The notes beneath the pieces were generated by a model. It did not search any database. It saw only the letters and a list, made by a program, of their open reading frames with translations, and was not told where the DNA came from. This document shows positions 3,891 through 62,395 of a DNA stretch of 64,000 nt, piece after piece (positions within the stretch are counted from its first letter, which is position 1; the number at the start of each line of letters is the position of its first letter). A program made the position numbers and the translations under genes. Origin of the DNA: Patescibacteria group bacterium (lineage in GTDB: Bacteria > Patescibacteriota > Microgenomatia > CAYGWK01); contig JBMORX010000001.1 of the NCBI GenBank assembly GCA_049322615.1, positions 6,715-70,714 of the forward strand, written 5' to 3'.

Positions 3891-4439
3891 TCACTGAGAC
3901 GCGGAACCCCGCTTAGCGGGGCGCAGAGACGCGGAAATTTTCTGCGTTTCCGCCTGCCCGCCAAGGCTTACGCCATCAGGCGTTGGCAGGCGGGCGGTTA
4001 CAATTTTTCCTCCCGCTTTTTCGATCTTTGCCTTAGCTCCCTTAGAACACGGCAGTTTGACAATTAAGGGAATTTTAACCTCGCCTTCACCTAAAATTTT
4101 AACATTTTTGGATTTGCTATCCTCAATTCTTAATATTCCCTTATCTTCCAGAGTTTTTAAAGTAACCTCTTCTTTGGGAGAAAAAAGATTCAGATACTTT
4201 AAATTGACGATAATTGGTTTTTGGGAACTTGGTTTGAATTTGCCTTTCCCCCTTATTAAAGGCAGTCTTTTAAGAAGAGACTTCTTTATTTTTGTTCCCT
4301 CAAAAAGAAAAGCTATTTTTCCCCTCGCTTTCTGACCTTTGGCGCCCCGACCAACAGTATGACCTCCCTTGCCTGAACCGATTCCCCGACCAATTCTTTT
4401 TTTAGATCTAGTTGTTATTTTAGGTAGTTTGCTTAACAT
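3891..4439 (-). CDS. rplO: 50S ribosomal protein L15 with a roughly 35-aa C-terminal extension encoded by a GC-rich repeat element
   Basis: [25 protein letters not shown]15 motif; 182 aa against a typical ~145; the extension covers 3896..3997. Confidence 0.9.
3896..3997. repeat. GC-rich palindromic element, copy 1 (core 3896..3953 plus an extra inverted repeat to 3997), translated as the L15 C-terminal tail
   Basis: gagacgcggaaccccgcttagcggggcgcagagacgcggaaattttctgcgtttccgc; about 65% GC in a roughly 38% GC context. Confidence 0.8.
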
Positions 4440-4472
4440 ATAAGTTACTTAAGTCACTTAGGTAACTTAAGT
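4440..4472 (-). repeat. CTTAAGTNA repeat spanning the rpsE 3' end (it encodes KLKLPK) and the spacer before the rplO AUG
   Basis: ataagttacttaagtcacttaggtaacttaag. Confidence 0.8.
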
Positions 4473-4894
4473 TTTTTTAATGCCTCAAAAGTGGCATAAA
4501 CATTCGAGGCTTGATTCCGAGTTCCTAAGATTTTTGAAACAATGTCTCTAATTCCTGCCGCTTCAACCACTGCCCTGACTGCTCCTCCGGCAATAACTCC
4601 TGAACCTTCAGGCGCTGGCTTAAGCAAAACTTTCGCTGCTCCAAGTTTAACATAAACTTGATGAGGAATAGTTGTCTCTCTGGTAGGCACAGAAATTAGA
4701 TGCTTTTTAGCGTAAGTTGCTCCTTTTAAGACGGCTGCGGAAACATCAGGAGCTCGGCCTAAACCTACTCCAACTCGACCTTTTTTATCTCCAACAACCA
4801 CTAAAACAGAAAAGGAAATTCTGTTTCCGCCTTTGGTTTTTTTGGAAACCCGATTTACCTGAACTACTTTTTCCTCAAATTCTTCGTTTTCCAT
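4454..4894 (-). CDS. rpsE: 30S ribosomal protein S5
   Basis: S5 dsRBD and C-terminal domain ([17 protein letters not shown]). It is followed directly by rplO with no L30 gene. Confidence 0.95.
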
Positions 4895-4928
4895 AAGTTA
4901 CTTAGGTTACCTAAGTCACTTAATTGAC
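4895..4928 (-). repeat. CTTAAGTNA repeat in the rplR-rpsE spacer, immediately before the rpsE AUG
   Basis: aagttacttaggttacctaagtcacttaattgac. Confidence 0.8.
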
Positions 4929-5222
4929 TTAGAACTCTAACCCTCCTTCCCTGGCTCCTTCGGCTAGGGCTTTTACTCGACCATGATATTTAAATCTTCC
5001 TCGGTCAAAATAGACTTTTTTTATACCTTTTTTCAAGGCTTCCTCGGCTAACAGTTTTCCAACCTGACGACTTCTCTCGATTTTACTTAAGTTACCTAAG
5101 TCACTTAAGTTACTTAAGTCGTTTACCGCCACTAAAGTCTGACCCTCCTCATCGTCAATAATTTGCCCATAAATATATTTATTTGAGCGAAAAACCGAAA
5201 GTCTCAGACGGGTTCTTTTCAT
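4929..5222 (-). CDS. rplR: 50S ribosomal protein L18 (contains an in-frame 9-bp-periodic repeat insert [11 protein letters not shown])
   Basis: L18 fold motifs ([17 protein letters not shown] ... [24 protein letters not shown]). Confidence 0.9.
5085..5128 (-). repeat. CTTAAGTNA repeat inserted in frame inside rplR (encodes [12 protein letters not shown])
   Basis: ttacttaagttacctaagtcacttaagttacttaagtcg, with a 9-bp period that preserves the reading frame. Confidence 0.8.
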
Positions 5223-6877: not shown

Positions 6878-7219
6878 TTAAATCACCTCTTTGCATTTTC
6901 GACAAATCCTTAATTTGGAGAGGGCTCCGTCCCCTCCAACTCCCCCAATTATTTTAAAACCTATTCTCGTTGGTTCTCCACACTTTGGACAGATGAAAGC
7001 AACGCTTGAATAAGGCAGGGGGGAAACAATATCAATAATTCCTCCTGAACTTCTGCCTTCCTTTCCCTGGCGGCGTGAGTGTTTTTTGTAGATATTGCAA
7101 CCTGAAACTAAAACTTTTTCTTTCTTTGGAAAAACCTTCTCCACCATTCCCTCTCTGCCTTTGTCTTTTCCTGCTATTATTTTTACCTTATCACCTTTTT
7201 TAAGCTTTGTTTTTCTCAT
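6878..7219 (-). CDS. rplX: 50S ribosomal protein L24 with C-terminal zinc-ribbon extension (CPKCGEP...CRKC)
   Basis: N-terminal KOW motif (KKGDKVKIIAGKDKGREG) followed by a Cys4 extension. Confidence 0.9.
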   Translation of the reverse strand: MRKTKLKKGDKVKIIAGKDKGREGMVEKVFPKKEKVLVSGCNIYKKHSRRQGKEGRSSGGIIDIVSPLPYSSVAFICPKCGEPTRIGFKIIGGVGGDGALSKLRICRKCKEVI

Positions 7220-8005: not shown

Positions 8006-8412
8006 ACGTTTTTAGCAACAAAACGAGTTTTAAAAGGAATCCTATATCCTGCTCGGCGCAAAGCCTCTCGGGCTGCCTCAAGAGGAATTCCGGAAACTTC
8101 AAAAATTATCTTACCCGGAGTTACCGGAACTACAAACCCAACCACGTCCCCCTTACCCGAACCCATTCTTGTTCCGGCTGCCTTTTGGGTTACAGGCTTA
8201 TCGGGAAAGACCCGGACCCAAATTTTGCCTTCCTTGCGCGTAAAAAAGGAAATAGCCCGCCGGGCTGCTTCAAGTTGTTTTTCGCTTAACCTTCCCCTGG
8301 TAACTGCTTTAAGACCAAAGTCGCCGAAAACAATGTTTGCGCCTTTTTCAGAAATTACCCTGGCTCCCCTTCTGAACTGTTTCTTAAATTTTTGTTTTTT
8401 TGGTTGCAACAT
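8002..8412 (-). CDS. rplP: 50S ribosomal protein L16
   Basis: MLQPKKQKFKKQFRG ... L16 signature. Confidence 0.95.
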   Translation of the reverse strand: MLQPKKQKFKKQFRRGARVISEKGANIVFGDFGLKAVTRGRLSEKQLEAARRAISFFTRKEGKIWVRVFPDKPVTQKAAGTRMGSGKGDVVGFVVPVTPGKIIFEVSGIPLEAAREALRRAGYRIPFKTRFVAKNV

Positions 8413-8443
8413 TTACTCTCCTTTATAAGCTTGCTTTCAAGTT

Positions 8444-11514: not shown

Positions 11515-12188
11515 ACTTTTTCCTCCTCACCTTTCTCTGGGCTCTCCATTTCTTTCTGCACCCTCTGCCTTGCAGGTTTCTTAATAATCAAAAGCCCCTT
11601 TTTTGCTCCAGGAACCAAACCCTTAACTAAAAGTAGATTTTTCTCAGGCAAAACTTCAAAAACTTGCAAATTCCGCACTGTTACCCTTGCCCCACCCATT
11701 CTTCCAGCCATTTTCTTACCTTTTAAAACTCTTCCTGGAGTGGTGGTTGAGCCAATTGAGCCTGGAGCCCTTTCTCTGTCTGACTGACCATGAGTTTTAG
11801 GTCCTCCGGCAAATCCCCATCTTTTAACCACCCCGGCAAAACCTTTGCCTTTGGAAGTGCCCGTAACATCAACAATATCTCCAGGTTTTAAAACATCCCC
11901 AACTTTAATCTCATCCCCAACTTTAAGATTAGCGCTGATTTCCTGCTGATTAGCGCTGACTTCTCGCAAAAAGCGGGGGATAATTTTTAACCCCGCTTTT
12001 TTTATGTGCCCTAAAATTGGTTTCTTGGTCTTTTTTTCTTTTTTTTCACCAAATCCAAGCTGAACTGAATCTTTTTTAATTTGAACCACGAAACAGGGAC
12101 CAGCCTGAATTTGGCTTACTGGGATTCGCTCTCCTTCGCTGGTAAATTTTTGCGTTTGTCCTAATTTTATTCCTAAAATCGTATCCAT
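11511..12188 (-). CDS. rplC: 50S ribosomal protein L3
   Basis: L3 signature (KGKGFAGVVKRWGFAGGPKTHGQS). Confidence 0.95.
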   Translation of the reverse strand: MDTILGIKLGQTQKFTSEGERIPVSQIQAGPCFVVQIKKDSVQLGFGEKKEKKTKKPILGHIKKAGLKIIPRFLREVSANQQEISANLKVGDEIKVGDVLKPGDIVDVTGTSKGKGFAGVVKRWGFAGGPKTHGQSDRERAPGSIGSTTTPGRVLKGKKMAGRMGGARVTVRNLQVFEVLPEKNLLLVKGLVPGAKKGLLIIKKPARQRVQKEMESPEKGEEEKV

Positions 12189-12225
12189 AAGTTACTTAGG
12201 TTACTTAAGTCACTTAAGTATTACC
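12189..12225 (-). repeat. CTTAAGTNA repeat immediately upstream of the rplC AUG
   Basis: ataagttacttaggttacttaagtcacttaagtattaccc. Confidence 0.8.
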
Positions 12226-27781: not shown

Positions 27782-28150
27782 ATGGAAAATAATTCTCTAA
27801 TCTCTTCTTTTGGTTTTGCTTTCTCGGGAATTTGGCAGGCAGTCAAAAGAGAAAGAAACTTAAAAATTCACCTCTTGGCGGCAATCCTGGTAATCTTGGC
27901 GGGAATTTATTTCAAGATTTCCAGACTTGAGTGGCTGGTATTGGTCTTGACTATTTCTTTGGTTTTGACTGCCGAGATTTTTAACTCGGCCATCGAGGAG
28001 ATCTGCAACCTCTTAAAAGAGAAACTAAGTCTGGATTACGGCAAGACAACCCTTATTCGCAATCTTTCTGCGGGAGCAGTTCTAATTTTGGCTATTGGTT
28101 CGGTAATTTTAGGCTTAATTATTTTTCTTCCCCATCTACTTTCCCGCTAA
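27782..28150 (+). CDS. dgkA: prokaryotic diacylglycerol kinase / undecaprenol kinase family
   Basis: FAFSGIWQAVKRERNLKIH and LTAEIFNSAIEEICN match DgkA conserved segments; three TM helices; 122 aa. Confidence 0.75.
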   Translation: MENNSLISSFGFAFSGIWQAVKRERNLKIHLLAAILVILAGIYFKISRLEWLVLVLTISLVLTAEIFNSAIEEICNLLKEKLSLDYGKTTLIRNLSAGAVLILAIGSVILGLIIFLPHLLSR

Positions 28151-28465
28151 TTTCCTCACTAATTTTATTTGCCAGAGGAAAAATATCCCAGCCAAAATAG
28201 AGATTGCCCCCCAAATTAAAAACCCTAAATAACCTTTTGGATAAATAATTGAGTCTAAGAAAGCAAGAATTGCCAAACCTGTCGGCGATAAACCAGTTTC
28301 TAAAAGACCGAAGAAGGAAATTTTGTAAAACAAGGGGTGGAAAATCAGAAAAATTCCAAAAATCAAAAAACTACCTCCCAGAGCCGCCTTTACATAACAT
28401 AAAAACTCATACCAAAGATTTGGATATGGGTCAGAAAGTTTTAAAATTTTCCCTAACTTCCCCAT
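28136..28465 (-). CDS. hypothetical integral membrane protein
   Basis: Three to four hydrophobic helices; no recognisable family. Confidence 0.45.
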   Translation of the reverse strand: MGKLGKILKLSDPYPNLWYEFLCYVKAALGGSFLIFGIFLIFHPLFYKISFFGLLETGLSPTGLAILAFLDSIIYPKGYLGFLIWGAISILAGIFFLWQIKLVRKLAGK

Positions 28466-28470: not shown

Positions 28471-29412
28471 CTATTTTACCACAAGCAAGAAATTTTTCGC
28501 GATTTTTGCTAAATCCCGCAAAAAGATTCTGACCGTAACCGGCCCAATTCCTCTAAATTCTAAAAGTTTTTTCTCTAACTCCCTTTGATTTTTTGATTGA
28601 CGAAGAAGGTTAGTCAGACTCTCATATTTAGTTTTAAGTTCTTGACAAATCTCTAAAAGTTTGGTGGCGGTCGAGAAATCGTATCTCACATAGTGCCCTC
28701 TATCCAAAACCTCAACTAATTTATCCCAACCGGCTTCTAAAATTTTTTCAGGAGTAAGCAGGTCTTCTTTTTGAAACTCAAAATAAGTTCTTTTAGCCAC
28801 CTCTTGCTGGATGGGCTTACCAAATAAAAGACAGGCTAAAAACCACTTAAAAATTTCCTTTTCCTTGCCCGATTTTAAATCAATACCCAACTGGTAAGAA
28901 TAAATTTTCTTTTTCCGAGGGGAAGCCTTCCGCAAACGAGATGAGGTTTTAATTAAAACATAGCGGGCTAAAGTTTCGGCGGCGATTGTCTGAAAAGAAA
29001 CCTTTTTGTTTTTATAAATCGCATGTCTTCGAGGCAACCAAGTTTTATGTGTTTTCCATAAAAGCACTAGCTGTTCTTCTGATAAATTTGCTTTAACCCA
29101 TTTTCTTGCAGACTTTCTAAGTTTATCAAATTTGTTATTAAATTCACTCAAAATTTGCTTTTCTGTCCTTAGTTGAGGATTAAGATATTTTTCTTTTATC
29201 TTTAACAAATTTATTGATTTTTCTTCCAAAAGAAGGTTAATTAACAGTTTAAATAATTGAAGTGGCGCTGTTTCTGGTAATTGATGAGAAATTAGATGGC
29301 GAAATTCTCTTAGATTTTCTGGAACCCTCCGATGATTAGGTAATCCCCGAAGTTTCAAGGCCATTTCCTTCTCGAATTGTTCTTTAATTTCTTTCCAATT
29401 TATCTTTCTCAC
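28471..29412 (-). CDS. hypothetical protein with a possible C-terminal helix-hairpin-helix motif (EFRGIGPVTVRIFLRDL)
   Basis: 313-aa ORF; the HhH-like GIG motif near the C-terminus is the only recognisable feature. Confidence 0.5.
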   Translation of the reverse strand: MRKINWKEIKEQFEKEMALKLRGLPNHRRVPENLREFRHLISHQLPETAPLQLFKLLINLLLEEKSINLLKIKEKYLNPQLRTEKQILSEFNNKFDKLRKSARKWVKANLSEEQLVLLWKTHKTWLPRRHAIYKNKKVSFQTIAAETLARYVLIKTSSRLRKASPRKKKIYSYQLGIDLKSGKEKEIFKWFLACLLFGKPIQQEVAKRTYFEFQKEDLLTPEKILEAGWDKLVEVLDRGHYVRYDFSTATKLLEICQELKTKYESLTNLLRQSKNQRELEKKLLEFRGIGPVTVRIFLRDLAKIAKNFLLVVK

Positions 29413-29520
29413 AATTTCATTTTAGCAAATCCAGGAAGAAACTTTATTATAGAACAGAGCGGGTATCCTTATTCCAATATTCTCAAGAGTTCGAGAATGT
29501 TTTTGAGAATGTTTGGAGAA

Positions 29521-29546
29521 TATATCATATATCGATATATGATATA
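29521..29546. promoter_or_regulatory. perfect 26-bp palindrome TATATCATATATCGATATATGATATA, with 12-bp tandem repeats (gagaatgttt x2.5) just upstream, in the leader of the 28471..29412 gene
   Basis: Reverse complement is identical; contains TGATATAT extended -10-like hexamers in both directions. Confidence 0.5.
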
Positions 29547-29603
29547 TGAATTCGTTCGTAAGGGATTCAGAGCAAAACAAATTTCGATTAAGATGGGTGA
29601 TTT

Positions 29604-29652
29604 TAGGAAAGACCGGCCACGCGGGGCTGTCCCACCCCGAGGTGGAAAAACG
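29604..29652. repeat. diverged copy of the composite intergenic repeat (gattttagg ... gcggggc ... ccgaggtggaaaaa)
   Basis: gggtgattttaggaaagaccggccacgcggggctgtcccaccccgaggtggaaaaacg shares modules with the 57.5-62.3 kb repeats. Confidence 0.5.
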
Positions 29653-29657
29653 TAAAT

Positions 29658-30161
29658 TTAAGTTCTCGATTTATCGGAATCTGGTGTCAATAAATTTGAT
29701 ATCTTTAAAACTTTACCTATTAATTTAGAATCTTTGTTGATAAAATTCTTCATTTGATAGATCCTCTTGTCGGTATAGCTAACTTGAAGCCAAAGAATCA
29801 TCTCCAGAGAAAGTAAATCTTTATTGGAATCTTTTAGAAAAGTCCTTTGTCTAAAATCTCTTATTACTTTCCCATTATAAGCTACAGCACCGATGACGTT
29901 ATGGACAAAATTGGTCCAATTTAATTGAGGATGATTAGAGGTAAAAGCAACCACCCATGAATGCTCGTGACCGGAATCGTAGTCTTCAAATTGTTTTTTA
30001 GCAGTATGCAAAAACCTTCTAAGTTTGTAAAAGGTGGTATCCCAGTGATACATTCTTGTAACCGGATTAAGTTTATGCTCGGGAGTTTTGACTTCGCAAT
30101 AAAAAATTAAGTTGTTTTTATTTGATACCATAAAGTCTGGAGATTTTTTACCTGGCGGCAA
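29658..30161 (-). CDS. PD-(D/E)xK nuclease-like protein, probably frameshifted at its 5' end
   Basis: SPDF...NLIFYCEVKT gives a PD-x14-E-x-K motif. The same frame upstream reads LVKNYLEKHGFDCKEIKTKK but is closed by a TGA; the adjacent frame encodes MDWASIKPLTEFEAAR. Confidence 0.5.
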   Translation of the reverse strand: MPPGKKSPDFMVSNKNNLIFYCEVKTPEHKLNPVTRMYHWDTTFYKLRRFLHTAKKQFEDYDSGHEHSWVVAFTSNHPQLNWTNFVHNVIGAVAYNGKVIRDFRQRTFLKDSNKDLLSLEMILWLQVSYTDKRIYQMKNFINKDSKLIGKVLKISNLLTPDSDKSRT

Positions 30162-30323
30162 TTTTTTAGTTTTAATTTCCTTACAATCAAATCCGTGTTT
30201 TTCAAGGTAGTTTTTTACTAACGTGCGGCCTCAAATTCAGTTAAAGGTTTGATACTCGCCCAATCCATGTATTTTTAAACTGATTCTCCTTTCTCTGTTT
30301 TATTTTGCTGATATCTTCTAACA

Positions 30324-31655
30324 TCACCTTAAAATTTTATCCATCATGGTGAGTGTCTTTCTACGTAAAAAGGGGCACTTTATGAGAAATACCAGAGAAA
30401 TCGCTGACACTACCGCTCCTCCGAAACCTATGATAGCTTTATACCAAGGAACTAACGATACTAAGCCGAAGCCAACACTAGCAGAAAGCCCCAAAATAAC
30501 ACCAAATAAAGTTAAACTATTCGTGTCCCAATTTCCCTTTAAAATTTCTTTTACGTATCCTAGTTCGGCTTTTGCCCTGTCTTTTATTTCTCTTAATCTC
30601 TTTTCCTGTTCCCATCTTTTCTTGGAACCATGTTCAAATGAATATTGGTAATAATCCAGTGCTTGATTAATCAGCTGGTAGTCAGCTTCCCAGGAGAACA
30701 ATAAATTCTCTATCTCGTTACTAATCTCTTTGGCCCTACATCTTTTCTTGCTCTCTTTTTCTTCGAATGCGAGCGTACCCCCATATACTCTTCTATTATT
30801 TAGTTCGTTAAGTCTTTTTCCTTGAGGAGATTCCCAAAACTCAATTTCCTTTATCCGCCTTTCGGCTTCTGATAGTTTCCTAGTAGTTTCTATTTGCTGT
30901 TTTTCTTCTTCATAAATTTTCCACAAGGCCTTAAGCTCTCTTTCCTCACCATCAGACAAAAGAGAAGCAGGATCTTCAAACTCGGGATCTAAAATATCTT
31001 CGTAAGGACCTAAGAAGCTCATTTTTGAATTAGCCAAAACATCTATTACATCTTTCGCCTTACAATCAATTGGTTTACGGGAAGTAACTATCAAAGAAAT
31101 TTCAATCTTGTCTTGAACCGGGGTTAAAACAAGTTGTGTAAAATTTTTTTCAAAATCGCTTAACCTTTTCTTTCTAAAATCAGAAAACAAAGATTCATCT
31201 TTCAATAATTCATGCTTTATATCAAAAACATAGGTGAGGAATCTTGCTAAGCACCAAAGTGTGTAATCGCCCGAGGGAATCCAAATAGTTTTTGCTTTTT
31301 CTTTTTTTTGTTGGGCAATGGCTGCTTTCTGTTTGGAATGCCAATAATTTGCAATAACCTCTCTAATCTCTTTCCATCTATAATTTTTACTATCATTTAA
31401 CCAAGGCTTTAAATCTAAATCTAGCAAAATTTTCTCAAGCGCTCCTCCCCAAACATCATCCCTTGCGGAATCTAGCTCCGTTATCATAAACTTCCTTGCT
31501 TCCCGCACTTCTATCAACCTTGCAACCGTAGCTTTATATTCAACTCCATTTTTTTTAAGTACACCCTTATACCGTCTTGTTTCAACTTTTACATCTACAG
31601 AAAAGGATTCTAGTTTACCCCGGCGGTTATATAGAAATGGCAAAAAACTTCTCAT
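30324..31655 (-). CDS. hypothetical protein: ~380-aa soluble domain plus a C-terminal two-helix transmembrane hairpin
   Basis: C-terminus LTLFGVILGLSASVGFGLVSLVPWYKAIIGFGGAVVSAISLVFLIK; no recognisable N-terminal family; sits between a putative REase and a PD-ExK nuclease. Confidence 0.6.
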   Translation of the reverse strand: MRSFLPFLYNRRGKLESFSVDVKVETRRYKGVLKKNGVEYKATVARLIEVREARKFMITELDSARDDVWGGALEKILLDLDLKPWLNDSKNYRWKEIREVIANYWHSKQKAAIAQQKKEKAKTIWIPSGDYTLWCLARFLTYVFDIKHELLKDESLFSDFRKKRLSDFEKNFTQLVLTPVQDKIEISLIVTSRKPIDCKAKDVIDVLANSKMSFLGPYEDILDPEFEDPASLLSDGEERELKALWKIYEEEKQQIETTRKLSEAERRIKEIEFWESPQGKRLNELNNRRVYGGTLAFEEKESKKRCRAKEISNEIENLLFSWEADYQLINQALDYYQYSFEHGSKKRWEQEKRLREIKDRAKAELGYVKEILKGNWDTNSLTLFGVILGLSASVGFGLVSLVPWYKAIIGFGGAVVSAISLVFLIKCPFLRRKTLTMMDKILR

Positions 31656-31712
31656 TTTATTTTGTTAAAGCTTCAATTTCTTCCAGCGTGAGGCTAATAT
31701 ATGTCCTTAAAT

Positions 31713-32576
31713 TTAAAAGTATTTCTCGATCCTTTGTGTGAGTAATTTGGCTAGATTTTGATAAGGAATAGCCTTATTAGCAGAAAAGAAGTTCAATGTT
31801 AATCTTAAGACTTTCCCCTTTCTAAACATTACCTTAATAATTCCTTCTTCCCATAATTTTTCATTTTCTAAAATTTTTCTCCAATTCCTTAATTCTAAGT
31901 TTTTAATTTCCTTAAAGCTTTTCTGTGGTGACGCATCAAAGTCTATCTTGGGTAATTCTGGTAGGTCATCTTTCCATCGTTTCAACCAAGAAAGTATGTT
32001 ATCCCAAATTTCGGGATGTTTTAGATATTCAAATAACTCTTTTCCATAAAAGAGATACAACTCTACGCCGTAAAATTCTTTCAGTCTGCGGAGCTCTTGA
32101 AGATAATAATTTTTATTTTTGGTTAAATCGGGATCTATAAAATACATAATCCCAAACAACGCTGATTTATGCTTTTTTTGTAAGATTTCAAGTTTTGTTT
32201 CAAAGTTAGTTATTTGTCCTCGTTTTTTGGAAGAATCATGATCGTCTCTTACTTTCTGTTCAACAAACCAATATATCTTTCCGTCAGTAAAATATTGGTC
32301 TAATGAGAACGCGTTTCCATTCTCATCAGTCATACCTTTAGGCATAACTTTAAAACCTAGGGAATTAAGAATTTCTTCTATTATTTCTTCAAGCGCGTCA
32401 CCCATCCGGATTTCGTGAGATTGTAAAAGATGTTGCAAAATCTTGGCTCCTGGTTTTGTTGGCCTGAAAAGACCCATAAAACGCTCTGGGTTTTTAGCTA
32501 TATTCCGCAGCAATTCTACTTTCTCACCTTCAAAAATATGTTTATTTAAAATGGCACAAAATCTTTGATAATTCAT
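31713..32576 (-). CDS. putative type II restriction endonuclease (PD-(D/E)xK-like core LDQYF...YWFVEQK)
   Basis: Start overlaps the methyltransferase stop by 4 bp (ATGA) on the same strand, the classic R-M arrangement; a D...ExK motif is present; no closer homology is recognisable by eye. Confidence 0.5.
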   Translation of the reverse strand: MNYQRFCAILNKHIFEGEKVELLRNIAKNPERFMGLFRPTKPGAKILQHLLQSHEIRMGDALEEIIEEILNSLGFKVMPKGMTDENGNAFSLDQYFTDGKIYWFVEQKVRDDHDSSKKRGQITNFETKLEILQKKHKSALFGIMYFIDPDLTKNKNYYLQELRRLKEFYGVELYLFYGKELFEYLKHPEIWDNILSWLKRWKDDLPELPKIDFDASPQKSFKEIKNLELRNWRKILENEKLWEEGIIKVMFRKGKVLRLTLNFFSANKAIPYQNLAKLLTQRIEKYF

Positions 32577-33460
32577 TTAAATGCCCCTAAATTCATGTAT
32601 TTATTTATATATTCTTCACTCAAGGAGGGTTGCTCTGTTATTTTTAATGGGTGTTTAAATCTCTCCTCTATGCCCTTTACATACTTTGGGTTGATTTCTA
32701 TCATAACAAAATTTCGTTTTAACGCCTGGGCAACATACCCTGTTGTTCCAGTCCCTGCTACAGGGTCTAAAATCAAATCGCCCTCTTTTGTAGATGTTAA
32801 AATTACTCTTTTAAGAAGATCTACTGGTTTTTGGGTAGAGTGCAGTTTTTTGCCTTTTTCATTTTTAAGTCGCTCGTCTCCCCAACAAAGCGGCAAAACC
32901 CAAACATTCGCACCTACTTTGCCAATCCCAAATTTTTTAGCATATTCTTTGTTAAATGTGTATTTTTTAGAGTTTTTGTCTTTTACTGCCCAAATGAGAT
33001 TCTCGGTAGCGTTTGTAAATCTCACGCCTAACCAGTTCGGCATAGGATTAGTCTTTACCCAAATCACATCATTGAGTATCCAATAACCTAAATCTTGCAT
33101 AATTTTCCCTATTCTAAAAGCACTATGATAAGTAGAAATAACCCAGATTGTAGCGGTTGGTTTCATTACTCTTTTTACTTCGGTAAGCAGTTTTCGGATA
33201 AACTCATCGTACTCTTCAAATGAAGAAAATTTATCCCATTCGTCATTAACTCCCTCAACTACAGTTTTGACACTCCACCTTCTTAATTCTTTATTTGGTA
33301 ATTGTAAGAAATAAGGTGGATCAATAAATACCATATCAAACGTTTCGTCGTCAATTTTTTTAAGCACTTTAAAAGCATCACCCAAAATGACCTTATTTTT
33401 GATTTCGTTTAACTTATATTTCTCACTCGCTGGGGTATCTTTTACTACTAGATTGTCCAT
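32573..33460 (-). CDS. beta-class amino DNA methyltransferase (N6-adenine or N4-cytosine)
   Basis: Motif IV DPPY (MVFIDPPYF) precedes motif I (ILDPVAGTGTTG), and HSTQKP is present, which is the circular-permuted beta-class order seen in M.PvuII/M.RsrI-like enzymes. Confidence 0.85.
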   Translation of the reverse strand: MDNLVVKDTPASEKYKLNEIKNKVILGDAFKVLKKIDDETFDMVFIDPPYFLQLPNKELRRWSVKTVVEGVNDEWDKFSSFEEYDEFIRKLLTEVKRVMKPTATIWVISTYHSAFRIGKIMQDLGYWILNDVIWVKTNPMPNWLGVRFTNATENLIWAVKDKNSKKYTFNKEYAKKFGIGKVGANVWVLPLCWGDERLKNEKGKKLHSTQKPVDLLKRVILTSTKEGDLILDPVAGTGTTGYVAQALKRNFVMIEINPKYVKGIEERFKHPLKITEQPSLSEEYINKYMNLGAFK

Positions 33461-33640
33461 TGTCTATTTATTTTCCCAATTTTATCATTTTCTGAATCTT
33501 TTAACAAACCCGACTTCGGGAAATTAAGATATTAAGAGATTGAGAAATTAAGGGTTTTTAGAGACTAGAGAGTAGAGATTATGATAGACTAGGACTAAAT
33601 AAGAAATTAATCTAATTAATCTAATTTCTAATTGACCTAA

Positions 33641-34315
33641 ATGAGAAAGAAAAGGATAAATTTTAGCCTAATTTTGTTTTTACTTTTAATTCCTTCCCTA
33701 CTTTTAAACATCTTTCTTTTTCAAAAAACAGAAAAGCTAGAAGAAAACAATCTGGTTACAGGAGTAATTGATGGCGATACTTTTGTCTTAAAATCAGGAC
33801 AAAAGGTAAGATTAGGAAATCTTGACGCCCCAGAACTGGAATTTTGCGGAGGCAAAGAAGCCAAAGAAAGATTAGAAAAGTTAATTTTGGGCAAGACCGT
33901 CGAGCTTGATATCTTCTCCTATGGTGAATTCAACCGCCCCCTGGCTTTGGTCTATCAAAAGGGAACCTTAGTTAATGAAATTTTACTTAAAGAAGGTCTG
34001 GTCAGATATGACGGCGATCCCAGTCCTCAAAGAGAAAGACTCAAGAAAGCTCATGATGAAGCAGTTGAGAACAGAAAAGGGATTTTTGGTCCGCCCTGTC
34101 TTTCTTTAGAGCCTGATAAACCAGGTTGTCTTATTAAGGCAAATATTGATCGCCACAGTGGTAAGAAGATTTATCATTTTCCGGGCTGTAATGAGTATCA
34201 AAGCGTCAAGGTAGAAAAGGATTTAGGGGAAAACTGGTTCTGCTCAGAGGAGGAGGCGGAAAAAGCAGGCTTTAGCAAAGCTCTAAATTGTCATGGGAAG
34301 AGTTATAATGATTGA
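33641..34315 (+). CDS. membrane-anchored staphylococcal-nuclease (SNase)-like thermonuclease with a Cys-containing C-terminal domain
   Basis: N-terminal TM, VIDGDTFVLKSGQKVRLGNLDAPE SNase core, and a C-terminal CLIKANIDRHSGKKIYHFPGC...[13 protein letters not shown]...NC shared with the paralogue at 55369..56127. Confidence 0.8.
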   Translation: MRKKRINFSLILFLLLIPSLLLNIFLFQKTEKLEENNLVTGVIDGDTFVLKSGQKVRLGNLDAPELEFCGGKEAKERLEKLILGKTVELDIFSYGEFNRPLALVYQKGTLVNEILLKEGLVRYDGDPSPQRERLKKAHDEAVENRKGIFGPPCLSLEPDKPGCLIKANIDRHSGKKIYHFPGCNEYQSVKVEKDLGENWFCSEEEAEKAGFSKALNCHGKSYND

Positions 34316-35597: not shown

Positions 35598-35608
35598 ATT
35601 ATAACGCT

Positions 35609-35688
35609 AAGACGCTGAACCTCGCTTCGCTCGGCGCAGAGACGCTAAAAATTTTGCGTTTTTGCTAAATTCTACGTTTTTGCGTTTC
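35609..35688. repeat. GC-rich palindromic element, copy 2 (same orientation as copy 1), between ruvX and the Zn-ribbon gene
   Basis: aagacgctgaacctcgcttcgctcggcgcagagacgctaaaaattttgcgtttttgc. Confidence 0.75.
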
Positions 35689-36030
35689 CAGATACTCTTG
35701 CAATATTAGCGCCGCAGAGATAGCATCTTCGTCTTTGACTCTCTTGCCTATCTCTTTCATTTTAGCAACTGCTTCTTGACTCGTCAAGGTTTCATCTTGA
35801 AACTTAACTGGCAACCCGGTAATTTTTCCCAAACCACGCCCAAATTTTCTTGCTCTTTCCGCCATTTTTCCTTCAGATATTCCGACGACTATTTTCTCAA
35901 TTCCCTCTTTCTGGCAAATACTTACAATTTGCCTGTTACTTTTTACTATTTTTAAGGGCTCGGCTAGCACTCCTTCAGAGATTGCCAACCCAATTTTTCT
36001 CTCACCATAATCTATTCCCAATATTTTCAT
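35665..36030 (-). CDS. ruvX: Holliday-junction resolvase-like RuvX/YqgF
   Basis: MKILGIDYGERKIGLAIS, the RNase H-like YqgF N-terminus. Confidence 0.85.
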   Translation of the reverse strand: MKILGIDYGERKIGLAISEGVLAEPLKIVKSNRQIVSICQKEGIEKIVVGISEGKMAERARKFGRGLGKITGLPVKFQDETLTSQEAVAKMKEIGKRVKDEDAISAALILQEYLETQKRRI

Positions 36031-57526: not shown

Positions 57527-57565
57527 ATTTTGGGGCGGGATTTTAAGAGGTCAAAAAGTTGGTTT
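57527..57565. repeat. composite intergenic repeat R, copy a (partial)
   Basis: ttttggggcgggattttaagaggtcaaaaagttgg. Confidence 0.6.
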
Positions 57566-57730
57566 TATTCTTTGCCGAAAAGGCTTTTAATCCAGTTTAT
57601 AAGTGAGCGCAACCAGTCTATGAGAGAGACGGCTCTATCAACTTTCTCTCGACCCTCTTCCAGTTTATCTAAAGTTTCCATATTCCAATTATACAACAAC
57701 CCTTCCCAGGAAGTTTACCCTGAATGAAAT

Positions 57731-57772
57731 GAGGGGGAATTTTAAGGGCCCAAATCCCGAGGTGGAAAAAAC
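57731..57772. repeat. composite intergenic repeat R, copy b
   Basis: gagggggaattttaagggcccaaatcccgaggtggaaaaaac. Confidence 0.65.
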
Positions 57773-57780
57773 TTTGCCAC

Positions 57781-57809
57781 TTGACAAGGGGTTTATTTTA
57801 GGTATAATA
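57781..57809 (+). promoter_or_regulatory. near-consensus sigma70 promoter TTGACA-17-TATAAT on the plus strand
   Basis: ttgacaaggggtttattttaggtataat. Confidence 0.6.
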
Positions 57810-57850
57810 TCGTCTTGCAGTCGAAAAGGCTGTTTATCAACCGCCTTCAG

Positions 57851-57880
57851 TCCCGACACTTGTCGGGATTTGGCTTTTTA
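57851..57880 (+). terminator. intrinsic terminator (cccgac-actt-gtcggg plus a T-run) ending a roughly 65-nt transcript from the 57781 promoter
   Basis: tcccgacacttgtcgggatttggcttttta. Confidence 0.55.
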
Positions 57881-58569
57881 AGAAGACCTAACCAAGAATT
57901 CTTCTCTAAGTTTCCAAACGTCTTGATAGTGATCTATATTCTTTGAGGTTCTAAGCTCATCAGCCACATGTCCCCTTCTAGATAAAACCAGCACTCTCTT
58001 CTTATGCTTTTTAAGAAAGGATGTTAAATAGACAAAATCACTATCTCCAGAGAAAAGTACGAAGGTATCAAAGTTATTCAGCCAGGAGACCGCATCAACT
58101 GAAATCTCAACGTCAAAATCGGCTTTACGCTCATCTGCCATTCTATTTTTATGTCCACACTGTTCGCATGTGATAGTCTTTCCTCTGCCCAAGATAGTTT
58201 TTATTGGTTTCCAAACAACGCGATATCCGTTTTTCTTTAAAAACATAAGAAATTTATCATGCGACCTTGTCCCAAAACGAGCTGTATAGAAACTTATACT
58301 TGAGACCCGAGTATTCTTTCTAAAAAATTTGTGAAGCTTCTTATAGTCTACTCGCCAAAGGTTTTTATTCGCTTTCCAATTTGCACCTTCGGCGAGATGT
58401 TTTGGCGGGGTAAAACCCAATGCTTGAACCGATTTTCGAGGTTTGCCGCATCAATATAAACAGCCACCAGACCCTGTAGTTGACTAATTAGTTCCCTTGT
58501 TATCTGTTTTTCTGCCGTTTTTAAACTCTTACCTTTTCCTGGTTCCTTTTTTCTTTTCATTAAATCCAT
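57878..58569 (-). pseudogene. NYN-domain (LabA/YacP-like) ribonuclease gene split by a frameshift near 58400-58440
   Basis: The 73-aa ORF (58348..58569) carries the N-terminal AVYIDAANL motif. The 180-aa ORF (57878..58420) continues in another frame with RVDYKKLHKFF ... FSGDSDFVYL and a CEQCGH zinc-ribbon insert. The overlap lies at a GGG/TTTT/CCCC/AAAA run. Confidence 0.6.
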
Positions 58570-58596
58570 TGTAACAGATTTTAAGGAGAGAAATTT

Positions 58597-58670
58597 TGGG
58601 GCGGGGCGGGATTTTAAGGGCTCAAATCCCTAGGTGGCGAACCTGTTTTACCTCCAAGGTGGAAGAGTCA
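58597..58670. repeat. composite intergenic repeat R, copy c
   Basis: ttttggggcggggcgggattttaagggctcaaatccctaggtggcgaacctgttttacctccaaggtggaagag. Confidence 0.75.
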
Positions 58671-58682
58671 CTTTCCTCCACA

Positions 58683-58740
58683 ATTTTAATCAAATTTGGC
58701 AATAAGCCTATACCAACGGCAAAATTCGCACTCGGCAACA
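58683..58740 (-). pseudogene. remnant 3' end of a second Cas4-like gene (encodes ...ECEFCRWYRLIAKFD*)
   Basis: ttaatcaaatttggcaataagcctataccaacggcaaaattcgcactcgg aligns with the 3' end of the intact Cas4-like gene at 56130..56180 (attaatcaaattcggcgatgagtttatgccaacggcaaaattcacactcgg). Confidence 0.6.
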
Positions 58741-58778
58741 AAAACGGCGACAAAGAAATCATAATTAAAAATAATGGT

Positions 58779-59228
58779 TCAACTATGTCCTGAGGGTATA
58801 TTTTGGCCAACATAGTTAGCCAAAAATCTTGCCTGCCAGTTAATTTTTCCGACCTTTCCCCTAGATAAATTAGATAAATTTGGAAGTCTGTCTCGCTGAT
58901 CCCGGTATAGTAGATAAAACTGCGCCTCATTAGCTATCGATACAAAAGCATGTGCCATCGATTCAAATACTGCCTCTTCCACGGTTCTATCTCCCCATTG
59001 AGGTCCAGTTTCATACTTCCATTGTTTATTAAATCTCTCTTTAAAAAGAGGACTATCTAAGAATTGTTTAAGAGATTTATAAGGATCCTTTATCCTAATA
59101 TCTTTAGGAGGGCGTTTATTCCAAAATGCTATGATCTGTTCTGGCTTAAAGTGCATATCCAAAATAATCGCTAGGGCTACTTCTGGCGAAGATTGCATAG
59201 TTAGTTCTGATAATTGCTCATTACTCAT
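58779..59228 (-). CDS. hypothetical protein (149 aa)
   Basis: Preceded by an extended -10 (TGATATAAT on the minus strand at 59252..59262); its 3' end runs into a gene remnant and repeat element. Confidence 0.4.
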   Translation of the reverse strand: MSNEQLSELTMQSSPEVALAIILDMHFKPEQIIAFWNKRPPKDIRIKDPYKSLKQFLDSPLFKERFNKQWKYETGPQWGDRTVEEAVFESMAHAFVSIANEAQFYLLYRDQRDRLPNLSNLSRGKVGKINWQARFLANYVGQNIPSGHS

Positions 59229-59327
59229 ATTTACAGGACGGAAGAGATTATATCATAATGATTTAAATCATTTAAACAATTTGTGGGAGATTTTAATTAA
59301 GACAAGGGAAGTTTAAAAAAACTCACT

Positions 59328-59365
59328 CGGGGCGGGATTTTAAGGGCGCAAAGAGGTGTGAACCT
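59328..59365. repeat. composite intergenic repeat R, copy d (5' module only)
   Basis: ctcggggcgggattttaagggcgcaaagaggtgtgaacc. Confidence 0.65.
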
Positions 59366-59382
59366 AGAATTTTATAAATACT

Positions 59383-60228
59383 TCATTGCCTTTTCCCAAA
59401 GACTTCAATTCTCATGTTTGGATAAGAAAGGGAGGAGACAGGTAAAGAAAATTCCTTGGCAAAAATTCCCCTCTTTTCTAACCCTTCCTCTTCTTCTACT
59501 ACCAGGGTTGTCAGGAGGAAATTAGCCTTTGTAGAAATTCTTCCAAATTGATCAAAAAATAAACTCTCAAAAAATAAGTCTGAAGGATAACAATAAACCA
59601 GATCGGCTGTTAGAAGTAAGCCATCTTCCGTCTCTTTTAATAATCCTAATTGACTATATGGGTTTGGCCCAGTTTCTCCTAGAACGCAGGAGATTTTTTC
59701 CTCCACTGTCGTTTCTAAAGAAAGTCTGCCCGGTGATACTAAAAGCGAGTCCACATAATCCTTGAAACTGTCAGTCTCCAAACAACCATATTTGGAAAAA
59801 CGCCTTTTCAATTCTTCAACCATCTTTTCTTTTAACTCGCCAGCCAACTGGGGAATATAATAAGAACCAATCGCAATCTTTCCTTCGCTGAAAACTAACC
59901 CTTCTTTATATGCCCTAAAATTTATTTCCTGGGCGATCGAGGCTAAGTCTTCGCTTGCCTCAATCCCAAAACTCTCAAATCCTGCCAATCCCGCTAAAAC
60001 CATCACTGTTCCATCTCCACAACCACAATCTAGAGAAATCGGTCTGGGTTCTGGAAACATTTCTCGAAGCTTAATAAATCCTGCCAAAAGAGAGGGTAAT
60101 ATTTCCTTTGGCTCGTTAAGATATGAGGGCCACCAATGCTCCAACTTACTTAATTGGGGATTTTTCTCTTCGAGCAGTCTAAGCACTTTAGGAATACAAT
60201 CAGATGGAACCTTTCCTCTCTCTTTCAT
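59383..60228 (-). CDS. class I SAM-dependent methyltransferase
   Basis: Motif I ISLDCGCGDGTVMVL. Confidence 0.75.
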   Translation of the reverse strand: MKERGKVPSDCIPKVLRLLEEKNPQLSKLEHWWPSYLNEPKEILPSLLAGFIKLREMFPEPRPISLDCGCGDGTVMVLAGLAGFESFGIEASEDLASIAQEINFRAYKEGLVFSEGKIAIGSYYIPQLAGELKEKMVEELKRRFSKYGCLETDSFKDYVDSLLVSPGRLSLETTVEEKISCVLGETGPNPYSQLGLLKETEDGLLLTADLVYCYPSDLFFESLFFDQFGRISTKANFLLTTLVVEEEEGLEKRGIFAKEFSLPVSSLSYPNMRIEVFGKRQ

Positions 60229-60315
60229 TGGCTCATACGGGCAGCGAGTTGGATTATATCATTTTTTCAAGACAAGCAGGACCATAAAAAATTGCCTTCA
60301 GTAATCTCATGGCAA

Positions 60316-60436
60316 GCGGGGCGGGATTTTAAGGGCTCAAATCCCTAGGTGGCGAACCCCATAAACCAGAAGAAACGGTTTAGGGCCATGAACCGATTAA
60401 ATCTGGTTCATTGGCTATTCCACCTCCCAGGTGAAA
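60316..60436. repeat. composite intergenic repeat R, copy e (full length, ~120 bp, four hairpin modules)
   Basis: gcggggcgggattttaagggctcaaatccctaggtggcgaaccccataaaccag...ggtttagggccatgaaccgattaaatctggttcattggctattccacctcccaggtg. Confidence 0.8.
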
Positions 60437-60455
60437 ATTTCTAGTATATCTTTTT

Positions 60456-61523
60456 TTAATAAGAGAGTAACTTTATTAACTTCTCGAATATATAAATTCT
60501 TCTATTTTTAAAACGCACTATTTTCACTACGTCTAACTCGCTAAATTTTGTCAATAACCTCCTTATAGTTCTTTCTTCAATTTTCGAGCTTTTACTAACA
60601 TCTCTCACCTTAAATATGGGCATCCTGAACATGAAATTTACAATCTTATAGGTATAGGGAGATTTTAGATGTCCGGTTAAATTTTCGACTTCTTTCATCA
60701 ATGTATTAATTTTTGAGATTAAATTTTGCGTTTCTTTTGCTTGGTTCTTAACAGAAATTAAGAAAAACTTCAACCATCTTTCGTACTCTCCTGTTTTGTC
60801 AACTTGATTTAAAGCATCTATATACCTATCCCTACGTTTATCAAAATAACCACTAATATAAAGAGTTGGTTGGAAAAGTAATTTTTTCCAAAATAAGTAT
60901 AAAGGTATAAGTAATCTACCAATTCTCCCATTGCCGTCTTGAAAAGGGTGTATTGCTTCAAATTGATAGTGAAGAATCCCAACCTTAATTAGAGGATGTT
61001 CACCGTCTCCAAGGAGATATTCTTCTAAATTTTCCATATAGTCTTGAATTAATAATGCCTCGAGTGGAATATAGGTTGCTTTCTCAATAGGCTCTCCTTC
61101 TTTTCCAATCCATACTTGTTCTTTTCTGAAATTTCCTCTTGTTTTATGCCCTCTGGTATTCTCCAAGAGTATTTGGTGAAGACCCTTTATAAAACTCAAG
61201 TCAATAGGTGTATTTTTCAGTTGTTCAATCGCCATGACCATTGCTTTTTTATAATTAGAAACCTCAACAGTATCGGGATGTTTAATTTCGCCTGTTGCTT
61301 CATATTTAAGCACGTCAGAAATAGTGCTTCTCGTGCCTTCGATTCTCGAACTAATAGTTGCTTCCTTAATCAAAAGAGGAGAAATTAAAATTTGAGGGTT
61401 TGGTAAGCTCCTTTGAAGTCCATCTAACCTACCTAATTCAAAAGAAGCGCTAGCTAGCTCGTTTGACAAGGTTGAGAAATTATATTTCGCTAACAATTTA
61501 GGTGGGTGATGTGGTTCTATCAT
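60456..61523 (-). CDS. Fic family protein (AMPylase-type) with a C-terminal winged helix
   Basis: Canonical Fic motif HPFQDGNGRIGRLL. Confidence 0.9.
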   Translation of the reverse strand: MIEPHHPPKLLAKYNFSTLSNELASASFELGRLDGLQRSLPNPQILISPLLIKEATISSRIEGTRSTISDVLKYEATGEIKHPDTVEVSNYKKAMVMAIEQLKNTPIDLSFIKGLHQILLENTRGHKTRGNFRKEQVWIGKEGEPIEKATYIPLEALLIQDYMENLEEYLLGDGEHPLIKVGILHYQFEAIHPFQDGNGRIGRLLIPLYLFWKKLLFQPTLYISGYFDKRRDRYIDALNQVDKTGEYERWLKFFLISVKNQAKETQNLISKINTLMKEVENLTGHLKSPYTYKIVNFMFRMPIFKVRDVSKSSKIEERTIRRLLTKFSELDVVKIVRFKNRRIYIFEKLIKLLSY

Positions 61524-61640
61524 TTTACGCTGATATTAACATATCCCGGACACTTTGTCAACTTTCTGTCCGAAAACCTCGATCTCCGGACACAAGTGTC
61601 CGAAAATAAGAACTTAAATAAGAAAATTAATTAAGGTACC

Positions 61641-61665
61641 TATTCCACCTCCGAGGTGGAAAAAT
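61641..61665. repeat. composite repeat R, 3' module only (ctattccacctccgaggtggaaaaa)
   Basis: A CCACCTC-c-GAGGTGG palindrome shared with copies b, e, f and the 29.6 kb copy. Confidence 0.6.
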
Positions 61666-61674
61666 TAATTCTCT

Positions 61675-61905
61675 TCATTTTTTCTTCTTTAAAAGTTTCT
61701 CAAATTCCTCGATGCTTATGTTGGCAAGTTTTAATTGTTTTCTGAGTAAAAATGGAGCAATCTCTTTATGTCTTGGAATAGAAATATTATAAGGACATTT
61801 ATCACTCTTCAAAATTATATGAGCACCATCGTCGCTTCTAATATAAAAATCGGCCCGTTGAAAGGCCACAACAACTTCTTTCCAAGAAAGTCCGACTAAC
61901 TTCAT
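61675..61905 (-). CDS. hicA: HicA-like mRNA interferase toxin
   Basis: 76 aa; W...GAH...ISIPRHKEIAPFLLRKQLKLANIS follows the HicA pattern (GSH...TVPHPKK...GTVKSILKQAGL); immediately downstream of a HicB-like gene. Confidence 0.65.
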   Translation of the reverse strand: MKLVGLSWKEVVVAFQRADFYIRSDDGAHIILKSDKCPYNISIPRHKEIAPFLLRKQLKLANISIEEFEKLLKKKK

Positions 61906-62142
61906 TTAGGCAGCGGCAAATACTTTGGGAAGCGAAACCCGAACGTTTCTGACTTCACCTACTTCTTTTTTCTCTTCTTCAGCCCTTACTTTCAGAAACG
62001 CTTTAATTGCCTTTTTTACATTGGAGACCGCCTCTCTTTTTGTTTTTCCTTGAGACATACAACCCGGAAGATTTAAAACCTCGGCAACGTAACCCTTATA
62101 TGCTTTATCGTAGATTAATTTAATGGTAAAAGTAGAAGCCAT
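61906..62142 (-). CDS. hicB: HicB-like antitoxin (RNase H-like fold N-domain)
   Basis: YDKAYKGYVAEVLNLPGCMSQGKTKREAVSNVKKAI matches the HicB/UPF0150 pattern. Confidence 0.65.
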   Translation of the reverse strand: MASTFTIKLIYDKAYKGYVAEVLNLPGCMSQGKTKREAVSNVKKAIKAFLKVRAEEEKKEVGEVRNVRVSLPKVFAAA

Positions 62143-62336: not shown

Positions 62337-62395
62337 GGATAAGTTTGTATTATATTCGATTTTTTAGAAAATGAGTAGGAAACCAAAGAATGTGG

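Follow-up and report, generated by a model that had tools for sequence, protein, structure and literature searches.

Effectors that carry transmembrane (TM) helices at their C-terminus are known from several abortive-infection systems, namely the 2TM proteins of CBASS and retrons, PycTM of Pycsar and the CorA-like proteins associated with type III CRISPR. Patescibacteria have tiny genomes and, to our knowledge, little seems to be known about their anti-phage defence beyond restriction-modification (R-M). Here, a stretch of 64,000 nt from a Patescibacteria group bacterium (GCA_049322615.1, contig JBMORX010000001.1, positions 6,715 to 70,714, forward strand), in the following called the window, was analysed with respect to four neighbouring genes, of which gene 3 codes for an orphan protein of 443 aa directly downstream of an R-M pair (genes 1 and 2). 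PrrC of EcoprrI is a described case of a latent suicide effector within an R-M locus and follows the logic of a backup when restriction is inhibited (PMC1484252). For the R-M pair, the described counterpart is M.HpyAIV, a beta-class type IIP enzyme that forms N6-methyladenine (m6A) and acts on GANTC (PMC3936762). With respect to gene 4, XisH is of relevance, which is required together with XisI and the serine recombinase XisF in the excision of the fdxN element (PMC4874684).

The protein encoded by gene 3 belongs to a real and rare family that is associated with restriction loci and has no known relatives. The region as a whole would be an accessory island, a mosaic that combines three independent pieces, namely the R-M pair, a gene 3 cassette that is likely a stand-alone anti-phage module and a decayed gene 4, a reading to which we give slightly less than an even chance. 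An earlier note, made from the letters of this DNA, had placed four co-oriented genes here, and all four open reading frames (ORFs) were found on the minus strand where it had put them. The features of the region are the following:

32573–33460, minus strand: gene 1, DNA methyltransferase (MTase), 295 aa
31713–32576, minus strand: gene 2, restriction endonuclease (REase), 287 aa
31657–31701, minus strand: apparent methylase-tail remnant
30324–31655, minus strand: gene 3, orphan protein, 443 aa
30378–30515, minus strand: part of gene 3 coding for the predicted TM hairpin (residues 381–426)
29658–30268, minus strand: gene 4, 203 aa as reconstructed, with an uninterrupted ORF of 167 aa at 29658–30161
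33479–33507, minus strand: sigma-70-like promoter match
29520–29547, no strand: perfect palindrome, 28 bp
about 29596–29655, no strand: diverged copy of an intergenic repeat

The gene 3 family and its predicted architecture

Homologues of gene 3 are scarce. Only 11 were detected in 5.8 billion protein clusters, and 20 clusters were found at E ≤ 1e-3 among 1.84 billion representatives; a few of these are fragments, and the full-length ones (most of the 20) comprise about 395–465 aa with a common architecture. A re-search with the family profile yielded one further distant member only. Pattern scans of the GTDB species representatives and IMG/VR as well as tblastn searches of phage and plasmid collections returned no relatives. 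Zero family matches were obtained for gene 3 in Pfam, PADLOC-DB v2, PHROGs and NCBIfam, no known defence or abortive-infection (Abi) family recurred across 19 family members, and the family profile did not match any PDB sequence. The ratio of non-synonymous to synonymous substitutions (dN/dS) was 0.10–0.15 at dS values of 1.0–1.5 and indicates strong purifying selection. Eight residues, namely W69, K147, P224, E237, G292, E301, R347 and W376, are invariant in the family.

An AF2 model of gene 3 (11 sequences; pLDDT 73, pTM 0.61, i.e. moderate) shows a three-strand beta-meander at residues 15–62, a helical bundle, a helix of 48 residues (326–373) and two terminal helices (381–400 and 404–426). 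Kyte-Doolittle windows of 19 residues exceeded 1.6 only at residues 380–404 and 405–431. The helices of the hairpin are rich in Gly and Ser and connected by a loop of ~6 residues, and the C-terminal tail is basic with five K/R versus one D/E. The hairpin is kept in 18 of 19 aligned homologues; P0046 is without this region. Given the two TM segments, the short loop and the basic tail, an N-in/C-in hairpin is predicted that leaves the bulk of the protein in the cytoplasm. Thus, the modelled protein would consist of a cytoplasmic part of ~375 aa that is joined by the long helix to a C-terminal two-helix membrane hairpin. A TM hairpin at the C-terminus had already been read from the translation in the earlier note, and the two hydrophobic segments, the predicted helices and their conservation bear it out. 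The model was compared with the folds of the PDB and BFVD without any match at E < 0.2; CorA-like and other solved membrane effector folds gave no significant structural match either, as CorA appeared as noise only (E 0.5, TM-score 0.10–0.12).

Genomic neighbourhoods of gene 3 and the methylase tail

Nine independent gene 3 loci were compared, and gene 3 was the sole gene common to them in an all-against-all BLAST. No neighbour is conserved across the nine loci, since the other shared 'ORFs' turned out to be shadows on the antisense strand of gene 3. In six of the nine loci, which is a small sample, the nearest neighbours are recognisable as restriction or defence genes, and in five a restriction/defence operon or a gene with a restriction-nuclease domain is located directly upstream on the same strand. 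The contexts are:

Window: HpyAIV-type R-M pair directly upstream, co-oriented
L015/L016: EcoRI-like MTase and GmrSD_N/HNH type II REase (REase_II) directly upstream, co-oriented
L002: HKD-Snf2 helicase-nuclease and a 1166-aa Eco57I/type IIG-like MTase directly upstream, co-oriented; PDC-M30A candidate downstream
L021/22: HSDR_N_2 protein directly upstream, co-oriented; the gene 3 homologue is only 27% identical
L003: DUF5677 protein directly upstream, co-oriented
L001: SIR2 gene divergent to gene 3; YchF/S6/SSB downstream
L005-7: PDC-S18 protein 1 kb downstream
L004 and L008: neighbours without recognised function

Neighbours that belong to restriction or defence in six of nine cases and are never the same core genes form the pattern of a mobile defence-island gene. 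The label 'defence-like island' given to the region in the earlier note is tentatively supported by these neighbourhoods as far as gene 3 is concerned. A consistent housekeeping context of the homologues, which would speak against this label, was looked for in the nine loci and not observed. In the window, the gap between the REase gene and gene 3 amounts to 57 bp as noted before, and no terminator-like site was found in it.

A feature that had been missed before lies in this gap. On the minus strand, positions 31657–31701 read ..YISLTLEEIEALTK followed by a stop codon that ends 1 nt ahead of the ATG of gene 3, and this short frame lacks a start codon of its own. It appears to be what is left of an Eco57I-family methylase gene, namely its 3' end, and to mark the 5' edge of a gene 3 cassette. 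The tail with its consensus ..LYGLTxEEIxIVE plus stop precedes gene 3 in four loci (window, L002, L003 and L015/16) with 1–12 nt from stop to start. It is the genuine C-terminus of an Eco57I-family methylase in L002 (..MVYKLYGLTPEEIVIVEENLK, then stop), where the MTase of 1166 aa closes with this tail after its TaqI_C domain, which ends at residue 1099. As an orphan, it is found upstream of gene 3 in L003 (mini-ORF MIDKLVYKLCGLTQEEIAIVDE with stop, after the DUF5677 gene) and in L015/16 (..KPYILTPEEIKIVEN with stop, after the HNH REase).

The tail motif, searched with a regular expression that was written after the sequences had been seen, matched six times in the six-frame translation of 216 kb, always beside gene 3. 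With an nhmmer model made from the non-window tail copies, the site in question was the best match within the window (E 0.023), and two tail DNA patterns occurred only once in the window and never in shuffles. When the 24-aa tail was compared with 72,556 plasmids by tblastn, 20 of the 25 matches listed were located in annotated Eco57I/N-6 DNA methylase/TaqI_C genes and the remaining five under no listed gene; on an archaeal plasmid (Halovenus), the match ends 15 nt ahead of the methylase stop codon. Judged by these sequence matches, Eco57I-family methylases genuinely end in this tail.

Tail copies on both sides of gene 3 form a direct repeat in L002 (~70 nt, ~80% identical, 6960–7031 versus 8367–8435), and both of them end in ATAAGATG, i.e. 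the stop codon and the start of the next gene. This is what the insertion of a unit of tail and gene 3 at the 3' end of the methylase gene would give. L003 contains three tail copies (135–198, 1170–1230 and 2483–2550) that set apart unrelated gene sets, namely two genes of 150 and 148 aa, then DUF5677 and finally the gene 3 homologue. This arrangement resembles an array of cassettes that entered at the 3' end of a methylase gene. Given the tail remnants before gene 3 and the flanking repeats in L002, gene 3 appears to move as a cassette. Between loci, the tail core is more conserved than the synonymous sites of gene 3, so that the tail is either re-acquired by recombination or has a function of its own. 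The ancestral position of gene 3 may have been immediately downstream of an Eco57I-family methylase, to which it would have been translationally coupled as it still is in L002, and the gene would spread or be retained by recombination at the conserved methylase tail. The tail remnants offer a concrete route by which accessory genes may be added behind restriction systems as well as a sequence tag for finding more cassettes.

Two genes located just downstream of gene 3 homologues, L002:8433–9374 (313 aa) and L015:3749–4603 (284 aa), gave no family matches. Their products are reciprocal best phmmer matches with negligible scores and have a 'SALDxLAxxL' block in common; they are possibly distant homologues. 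A HEPN-like (Rx4-6H) kinship of these two with neighbours of gene 3 in L004 (295 aa) and L008 (326 aa) was considered and rejected, as the phmmer scores were negligible and the alignment was unconvincing.

The R-M pair, gene 4 and further features of the window

Gene 1 matches PF01555 with E 6e-55 (187 bits versus a gathering score of 26.7) and PADLOC MTase_II with E 4e-104. Its DPPY motif (motif IV, residues 46–49) lies ahead of motif I, the AdoMet motif (VAGTGTTG, ~233–240), which confirms the beta class proposed earlier. The best NCBIfam relative is CcrM (NF050803) with 329 bits, and since the equivalog cutoff of 830 is not reached, the enzyme is related to CcrM and not CcrM itself. Gene 1 is thus classified as a beta-class N6-adenine DNA methyltransferase of the HinfI/CcrM/M.HpyAIV type with the predicted site GANTC. 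The product of gene 2 reached 245 bits with NCBIfam NF045832 (restrict_HpyAIV, cutoff 160) over residues 1–256 (profile 1–265 of 269) and matched PADLOC REase_II with E 4.4e-78; a D-x12-E-x-K motif (LDQYF...VEQK) is readable in its translation. It can be assigned as a full-length type IIP restriction endonuclease of the HpyAIV family, in line with the former suggestion of a cognate REase. The two genes overlap by 4 nt (ATGA), exactly as noted before. As an HpyAIV-family REase is combined with a CcrM/HinfI-like beta-class m6A MTase, an intact type IIP R-M pair specific for GANTC is predicted, in which the MTase would shield GANTC sites through m6A and the REase would cleave those that lack the modification. 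Such a pair is routine and already known biology, and the family-level call sharpens the previous assignment.

In the window, 173 GANTC sites were observed versus 202 expected. This ratio of 0.86 was set aside as support for R-M activity. CTNAG was far more depleted, with 113 sites observed versus 190 expected (ratio 0.59), a hint that the lineage is or was under DdeI-like restriction pressure. A promoter match at 33479–33507 upstream of the MTase gene (TTGTTA-17-TAAAAT with TG) agrees with the consensus only. It is a possible operon promoter for genes 1 to 3, and this evidence is weak because promoter-like sites in the region are as numerous as expected from shuffles.

Gene 4 starts with 16 codons, MDWASIKPLTEFEAAR-TAG, at 30268–30218, and the remainder is open in the -1 frame from 30230. 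The frameshift reported in the earlier note is real; its place is about 30219–30225 (CGT(T)TAG, one T missing) and not 30165–30175. No slippery heptamer is present at CGT-TAG, so that programmed frameshifting was discarded and a simple deletion of 1 nt or an assembly error is more likely. The 32 intact homologues (~200 aa) cover 97–99% of the reconstructed 203 aa including the N-terminal piece of 16 aa. E11, P44-D45, E59-x-K61 and Q93 are invariant in these 32 sequences. An AF2 model with pLDDT 88 gave the topology H11-24/E28-31/E46-50/E53-61/H76-97/E104-111, which fits an alpha-beta-beta-beta-alpha-beta core. The top Foldseek matches were XisH (2inb and 2okf) and Hjc (2wiw) with a probability of 0.84–0.89 and a marginal E of about 0.01–0.02 (XisH 0.013); further structural neighbours were other restriction-fold nucleases with likewise marginal E-values. 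Given the invariant catalytic residues and the fact that all top structural neighbours are nucleases of this fold, the PD-(D/E)xK assignment of the earlier note stands. Pfam XisH (PF08814) was not matched by any of the 32 family members at E ≤ 1, and the family profile had no match among PDB sequences. As the helix with E11 is out of frame, the copy in the window has probably lost its activity, provided that the frameshift does not stem from the assembly.

Genes 3 and 4 had been suggested to form an undescribed two-component defence module, a membrane effector plus a nuclease, that rides with the R-M system. They are adjacent in the window, co-oriented and 55 bp apart, and in L003 a PD-(D/E)xK-like protein of 248 aa is encoded two genes past the gene 3 homologue, although the hhalign probability is only 2.6%. 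This model is nevertheless extremely improbable. No gene 4 homologue was found by BLAST in any of the eight other gene 3 loci, the gene 4 loci L009–L014 gave no match when gene 3 of the window was the BLAST query, gene tables and ORF/Pfam lists of the later gene 4 loci show no neighbour of the size of gene 3, and in total the homologues co-occur in none of the eight other gene 3 loci and none of the seven gene 4 contexts. Moreover, the frameshift costs gene 4 the helix with the invariant E11, and the tail remnant indicates that gene 3 came as its own cassette. A conserved pair is rejected by the all-against-all neighbourhood BLAST, and gene 4 of the window is best read as the frameshifted, decayed representative of a PD-(D/E)xK family of its own and not as the partner of gene 3. 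Another explanation takes the gene 4 family as an accessory of serine-recombinase integrative elements, either as a nuclease that the element carries or as a factor for directionality or excision similar to XisH; the window would then hold a relic of such an element that has lost its recombinase. In three of seven contexts, which are independent loci, homologues are located within ~0.5 kb of serine recombinases that are mutually divergent (19–25% identity). XisH proteins, which act with XisF, are the best fold matches, the window copy is frameshifted, and no recombinase remnant was found beside it in the window. On the other hand, the Foldseek E is just about 0.01 with Pfam XisH in none of the 32 members, four of the seven contexts (L014, L019, L020 and L023) are without a recombinase, and the invariant E/D/ExK residues suggest an active nuclease over a purely architectural factor. 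The explanation is thus conceivable and leans to the doubtful side, and an accessory role analogous to that of XisH is a lead rather than a finding.

The gene 4 homologues located within ~0.5 kb of diverse serine recombinases (245–567 aa) in L009–L013 and L026–L028 are intact, and sometimes an ORF of 55–67 aa lies in between. The combination of both genes suggests an integrative-element module of Patescibacteria. With the gene 4 family, the serine-recombinase elements of this phylum may have a new kind of accessory nuclease. The contexts without recombinase are:

L014: type I R-M and ImmA-like genes, at a contig end
L019: AbiU2/zeta-toxin-like genes
L020 and L023: housekeeping genes

The island lies in a block of low GC content (0.31–0.37, flanks 0.40–0.46) that extends from ~28000 to ~33700 and is wider than the four genes. 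Its flanks are housekeeping, with rpoB/rpoC-sized ORFs upstream and YceG-, RuvX- and sortase-like ORFs downstream. A repeat search around the island gave no convincing att-like direct repeats, and Rfam and tRNA scans of the 64-kb window gave no match. Beyond gene 4, the block contains genes on the minus strand for a protein of 313 aa (28471–29412), which has weak HhH-GPD/DUF2400-like matches (E ~0.02) and a C-terminal LEFRGIGPVTVRIF hairpin motif, and for a hydrophobic protein of 109 aa (28136–28465). Neither of them matched a PDB entry or defence family, and both genes may be part of the same acquired island. Divergent from the adjoining MTase gene, the ORF at 33641–34315 (plus strand) codes for a staphylococcal-nuclease homologue of the secreted type, which has a 'sunset' domain (NCBIfam NF051437) at its C-terminus; L001 has a homologue of it with 42% identity ~6 kb from its gene 3 homologue.

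The perfect palindrome at the island edge, ATATATCATATATC|GATATATGATATAT, was retrieved by the repeat search in the spacer of 245 bp after gene 4 (29520–29547) and measures 28 bp instead of the 26 bp given before. The nearby repeat copy (about 29596–29655) does resemble the repeats at 57.5–62.4 kb; according to the alignment, however, the common part is restricted to the ends (ATTTTAGG ... CCCGAGGTGGAAAAA) and a 19-nt insertion is present. The latter repeats form a composite intergenic cluster at 57532–62369 (GGGGCGGGATTTTAAGGGCTCAAATCCCTAGGTGGCGAACC..., ..TTCCACCTCCGAGGTGGAA..) between short minus-strand genes, which includes a 63-nt pair at 60374/62274 and matched no Rfam family. Short arrays of TTACTTAAG-like units with a period of 9 nt occur at 928–979, 4437–4479, 4890–4932, 5075–5126 and 12184–12217 and are possibly an operator or promoter motif family. 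A GC-rich repeat of 48 nt, CTGAGACGCGGAACCCCGCTTAGCGGGGCGCAGAGACGCGGAAA, is present twice (3894–3941 and 35607–35654, 81% identical); the second copy lies in the gap at 35598–35664 just before the RuvX-like ORF at 35665–36030.

Proposed role of gene 3 and comparison with known systems

Taken together, the architecture (a cytoplasmic domain, a long helix and a hairpin rich in Gly and Ser), the location among defence genes, the missing terminator after the REase gene and the missing enzymatic signature make a self-contained membrane sensor-effector the most likely reading of gene 3. As a stand-alone second-line anti-phage module, it would be expressed probably by read-through from the R-M operon. 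Its cytoplasmic part may sense infection or the failure or inhibition of restriction, whereupon the hairpin would oligomerise and breach or block the membrane, resulting in abortive infection or exclusion. From architecture and neighbourhood, such a membrane abortive-infection role, which the earlier note had read from the architecture, is plausible.

A variant of this idea makes gene 3 an accessory or guard of restriction with PrrC-like logic. The upstream R-M system or methylase would keep it inactive or be needed for its function, and inhibition of restriction by a phage would trigger it at the membrane. This variant is attractive as gene 3 is located directly downstream, co-oriented, of three non-homologous R-M-type systems and one HSDR_N nuclease, and as the tail remnant and the spacing of 1–12 nt imply an ancestral translational coupling to a methylase. 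The diversity of the partners weakens it: a specific protein-protein interface is hard to picture for mutually unrelated systems, L001, L004, L005 and L008 have no recognisable R-M or restriction-nuclease gene upstream, and an NTPase or nuclease domain as in PrrC is lacking. The guard variant is thus unlikely. Rather unlikely as well, gene 3 could code for a non-immune membrane protein, e.g. of the envelope or host-contact biology of episymbiotic Patescibacteria, of DNA uptake or of a selfish cassette, that gathers in defence hotspots. Variable regions gather cargo of all kinds, some contexts are housekeeping or uncharacterised (L001 with YchF/S6/SSB downstream, L004, L008), and no homology to any defence family exists. 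This is opposed by the restriction and defence genes that are nearest in 6/9 contexts, by the patchy and extremely rare distribution with no match in phages, plasmids, IMG/VR and GTDB representatives, and by the strong purifying selection, which speaks against junk.

Several points weigh against gene 3 as a membrane effector moved in a cassette behind an active R-M pair. The protein has no homology to a known defence or pore-forming protein in PADLOC, Pfam, PHROGs, PDB and BFVD, its invariant residues point to no mechanism, and the AF2 model is of moderate confidence only, with pLDDT 45–63 in the TM region. Only nine contexts are available, most of them on short metagenomic contigs, and 6/9 is a raw count without background rate; the neighbours in L004, L008 and partly L001 are housekeeping or uncharacterised. 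The idea of cassettes and recombination rests on seven tail copies in four loci, and the tail could instead be a scar from the replacement of upstream methylases. The GANTC depletion of 0.86 is mild only and at most suggestive of R-M activity.

The broadest proposal goes further and remains speculative and improbable: gene 3 would be the founding case of a new membrane-effector family, linked to restriction, in the ultra-small bacteria of the candidate phyla radiation (CPR). Together with other small defence genes, it would be moved in cassettes without a recombinase, which insert at the conserved 3' ends of Eco57I-family methylase genes, restore these ends and thereby build integron-like arrays with methylase-tail repeats between the cassettes (three tails in L003, two in L002). 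If gene 3 is a defence gene, its family is absent from current defence catalogues.

Compared with the HpyAIV/HinfI type IIP R-M systems, the REase of the window is full-length and above the HpyAIV equivalog cutoff, the MTase is of the PF01555 beta class with CcrM (GANTC) as the closest NCBIfam model, and the order of M before R with an overlap of 4 nt is typical of such pairs. It differs in that the host is a Patescibacteria metagenome-assembled genome, that the specificity is deduced from the families and that the MTase is no CcrM orthologue. The model of gene 4 has the minimal restriction-endonuclease-like fold of XisH (PF08814) and Hjc-type proteins with an invariant E...PD...ExK, and its family often adjoins serine recombinases as XisH does XisF; unlike these proteins, it has ~70 more residues and an additional beta/alpha part at the C-terminus, does not match Pfam XisH and reaches marginal structural E-values only.

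As in integrons or insertions that restore the 3' end of a tRNA gene, each cassette is preceded by the same short sequence, here the methylase tail, and the duplication in L002 flanks the inserted gene and leaves the methylase reading frame intact. In contrast to these systems, neither an integrase nor attC or att sites were detected, the end of a protein-coding gene serves as the repeat, the examples are a handful only, and the recombination may be homologous or illegitimate. Like PrrC, gene 3 is a non-R-M gene that is genetically linked to restriction loci. PrrC, however, is an ABC-ATPase anticodon nuclease tied to type Ic R-M, whereas NTPase and nuclease motifs are absent from gene 3, which is predicted to be membrane-anchored and is found beside unrelated R-M types. 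From the TM effectors of abortive infection, i.e. CBASS and retron 2TM, Pycsar PycTM and the CorA-like proteins of type III CRISPR, it is set apart by the missing sequence or fold similarity (PADLOC negative) and the missing signal-generating enzyme. With these effectors, it shares the predicted layout of a cytoplasmic domain, a long helix and a C-terminal hairpin as well as the location among restriction and defence genes.

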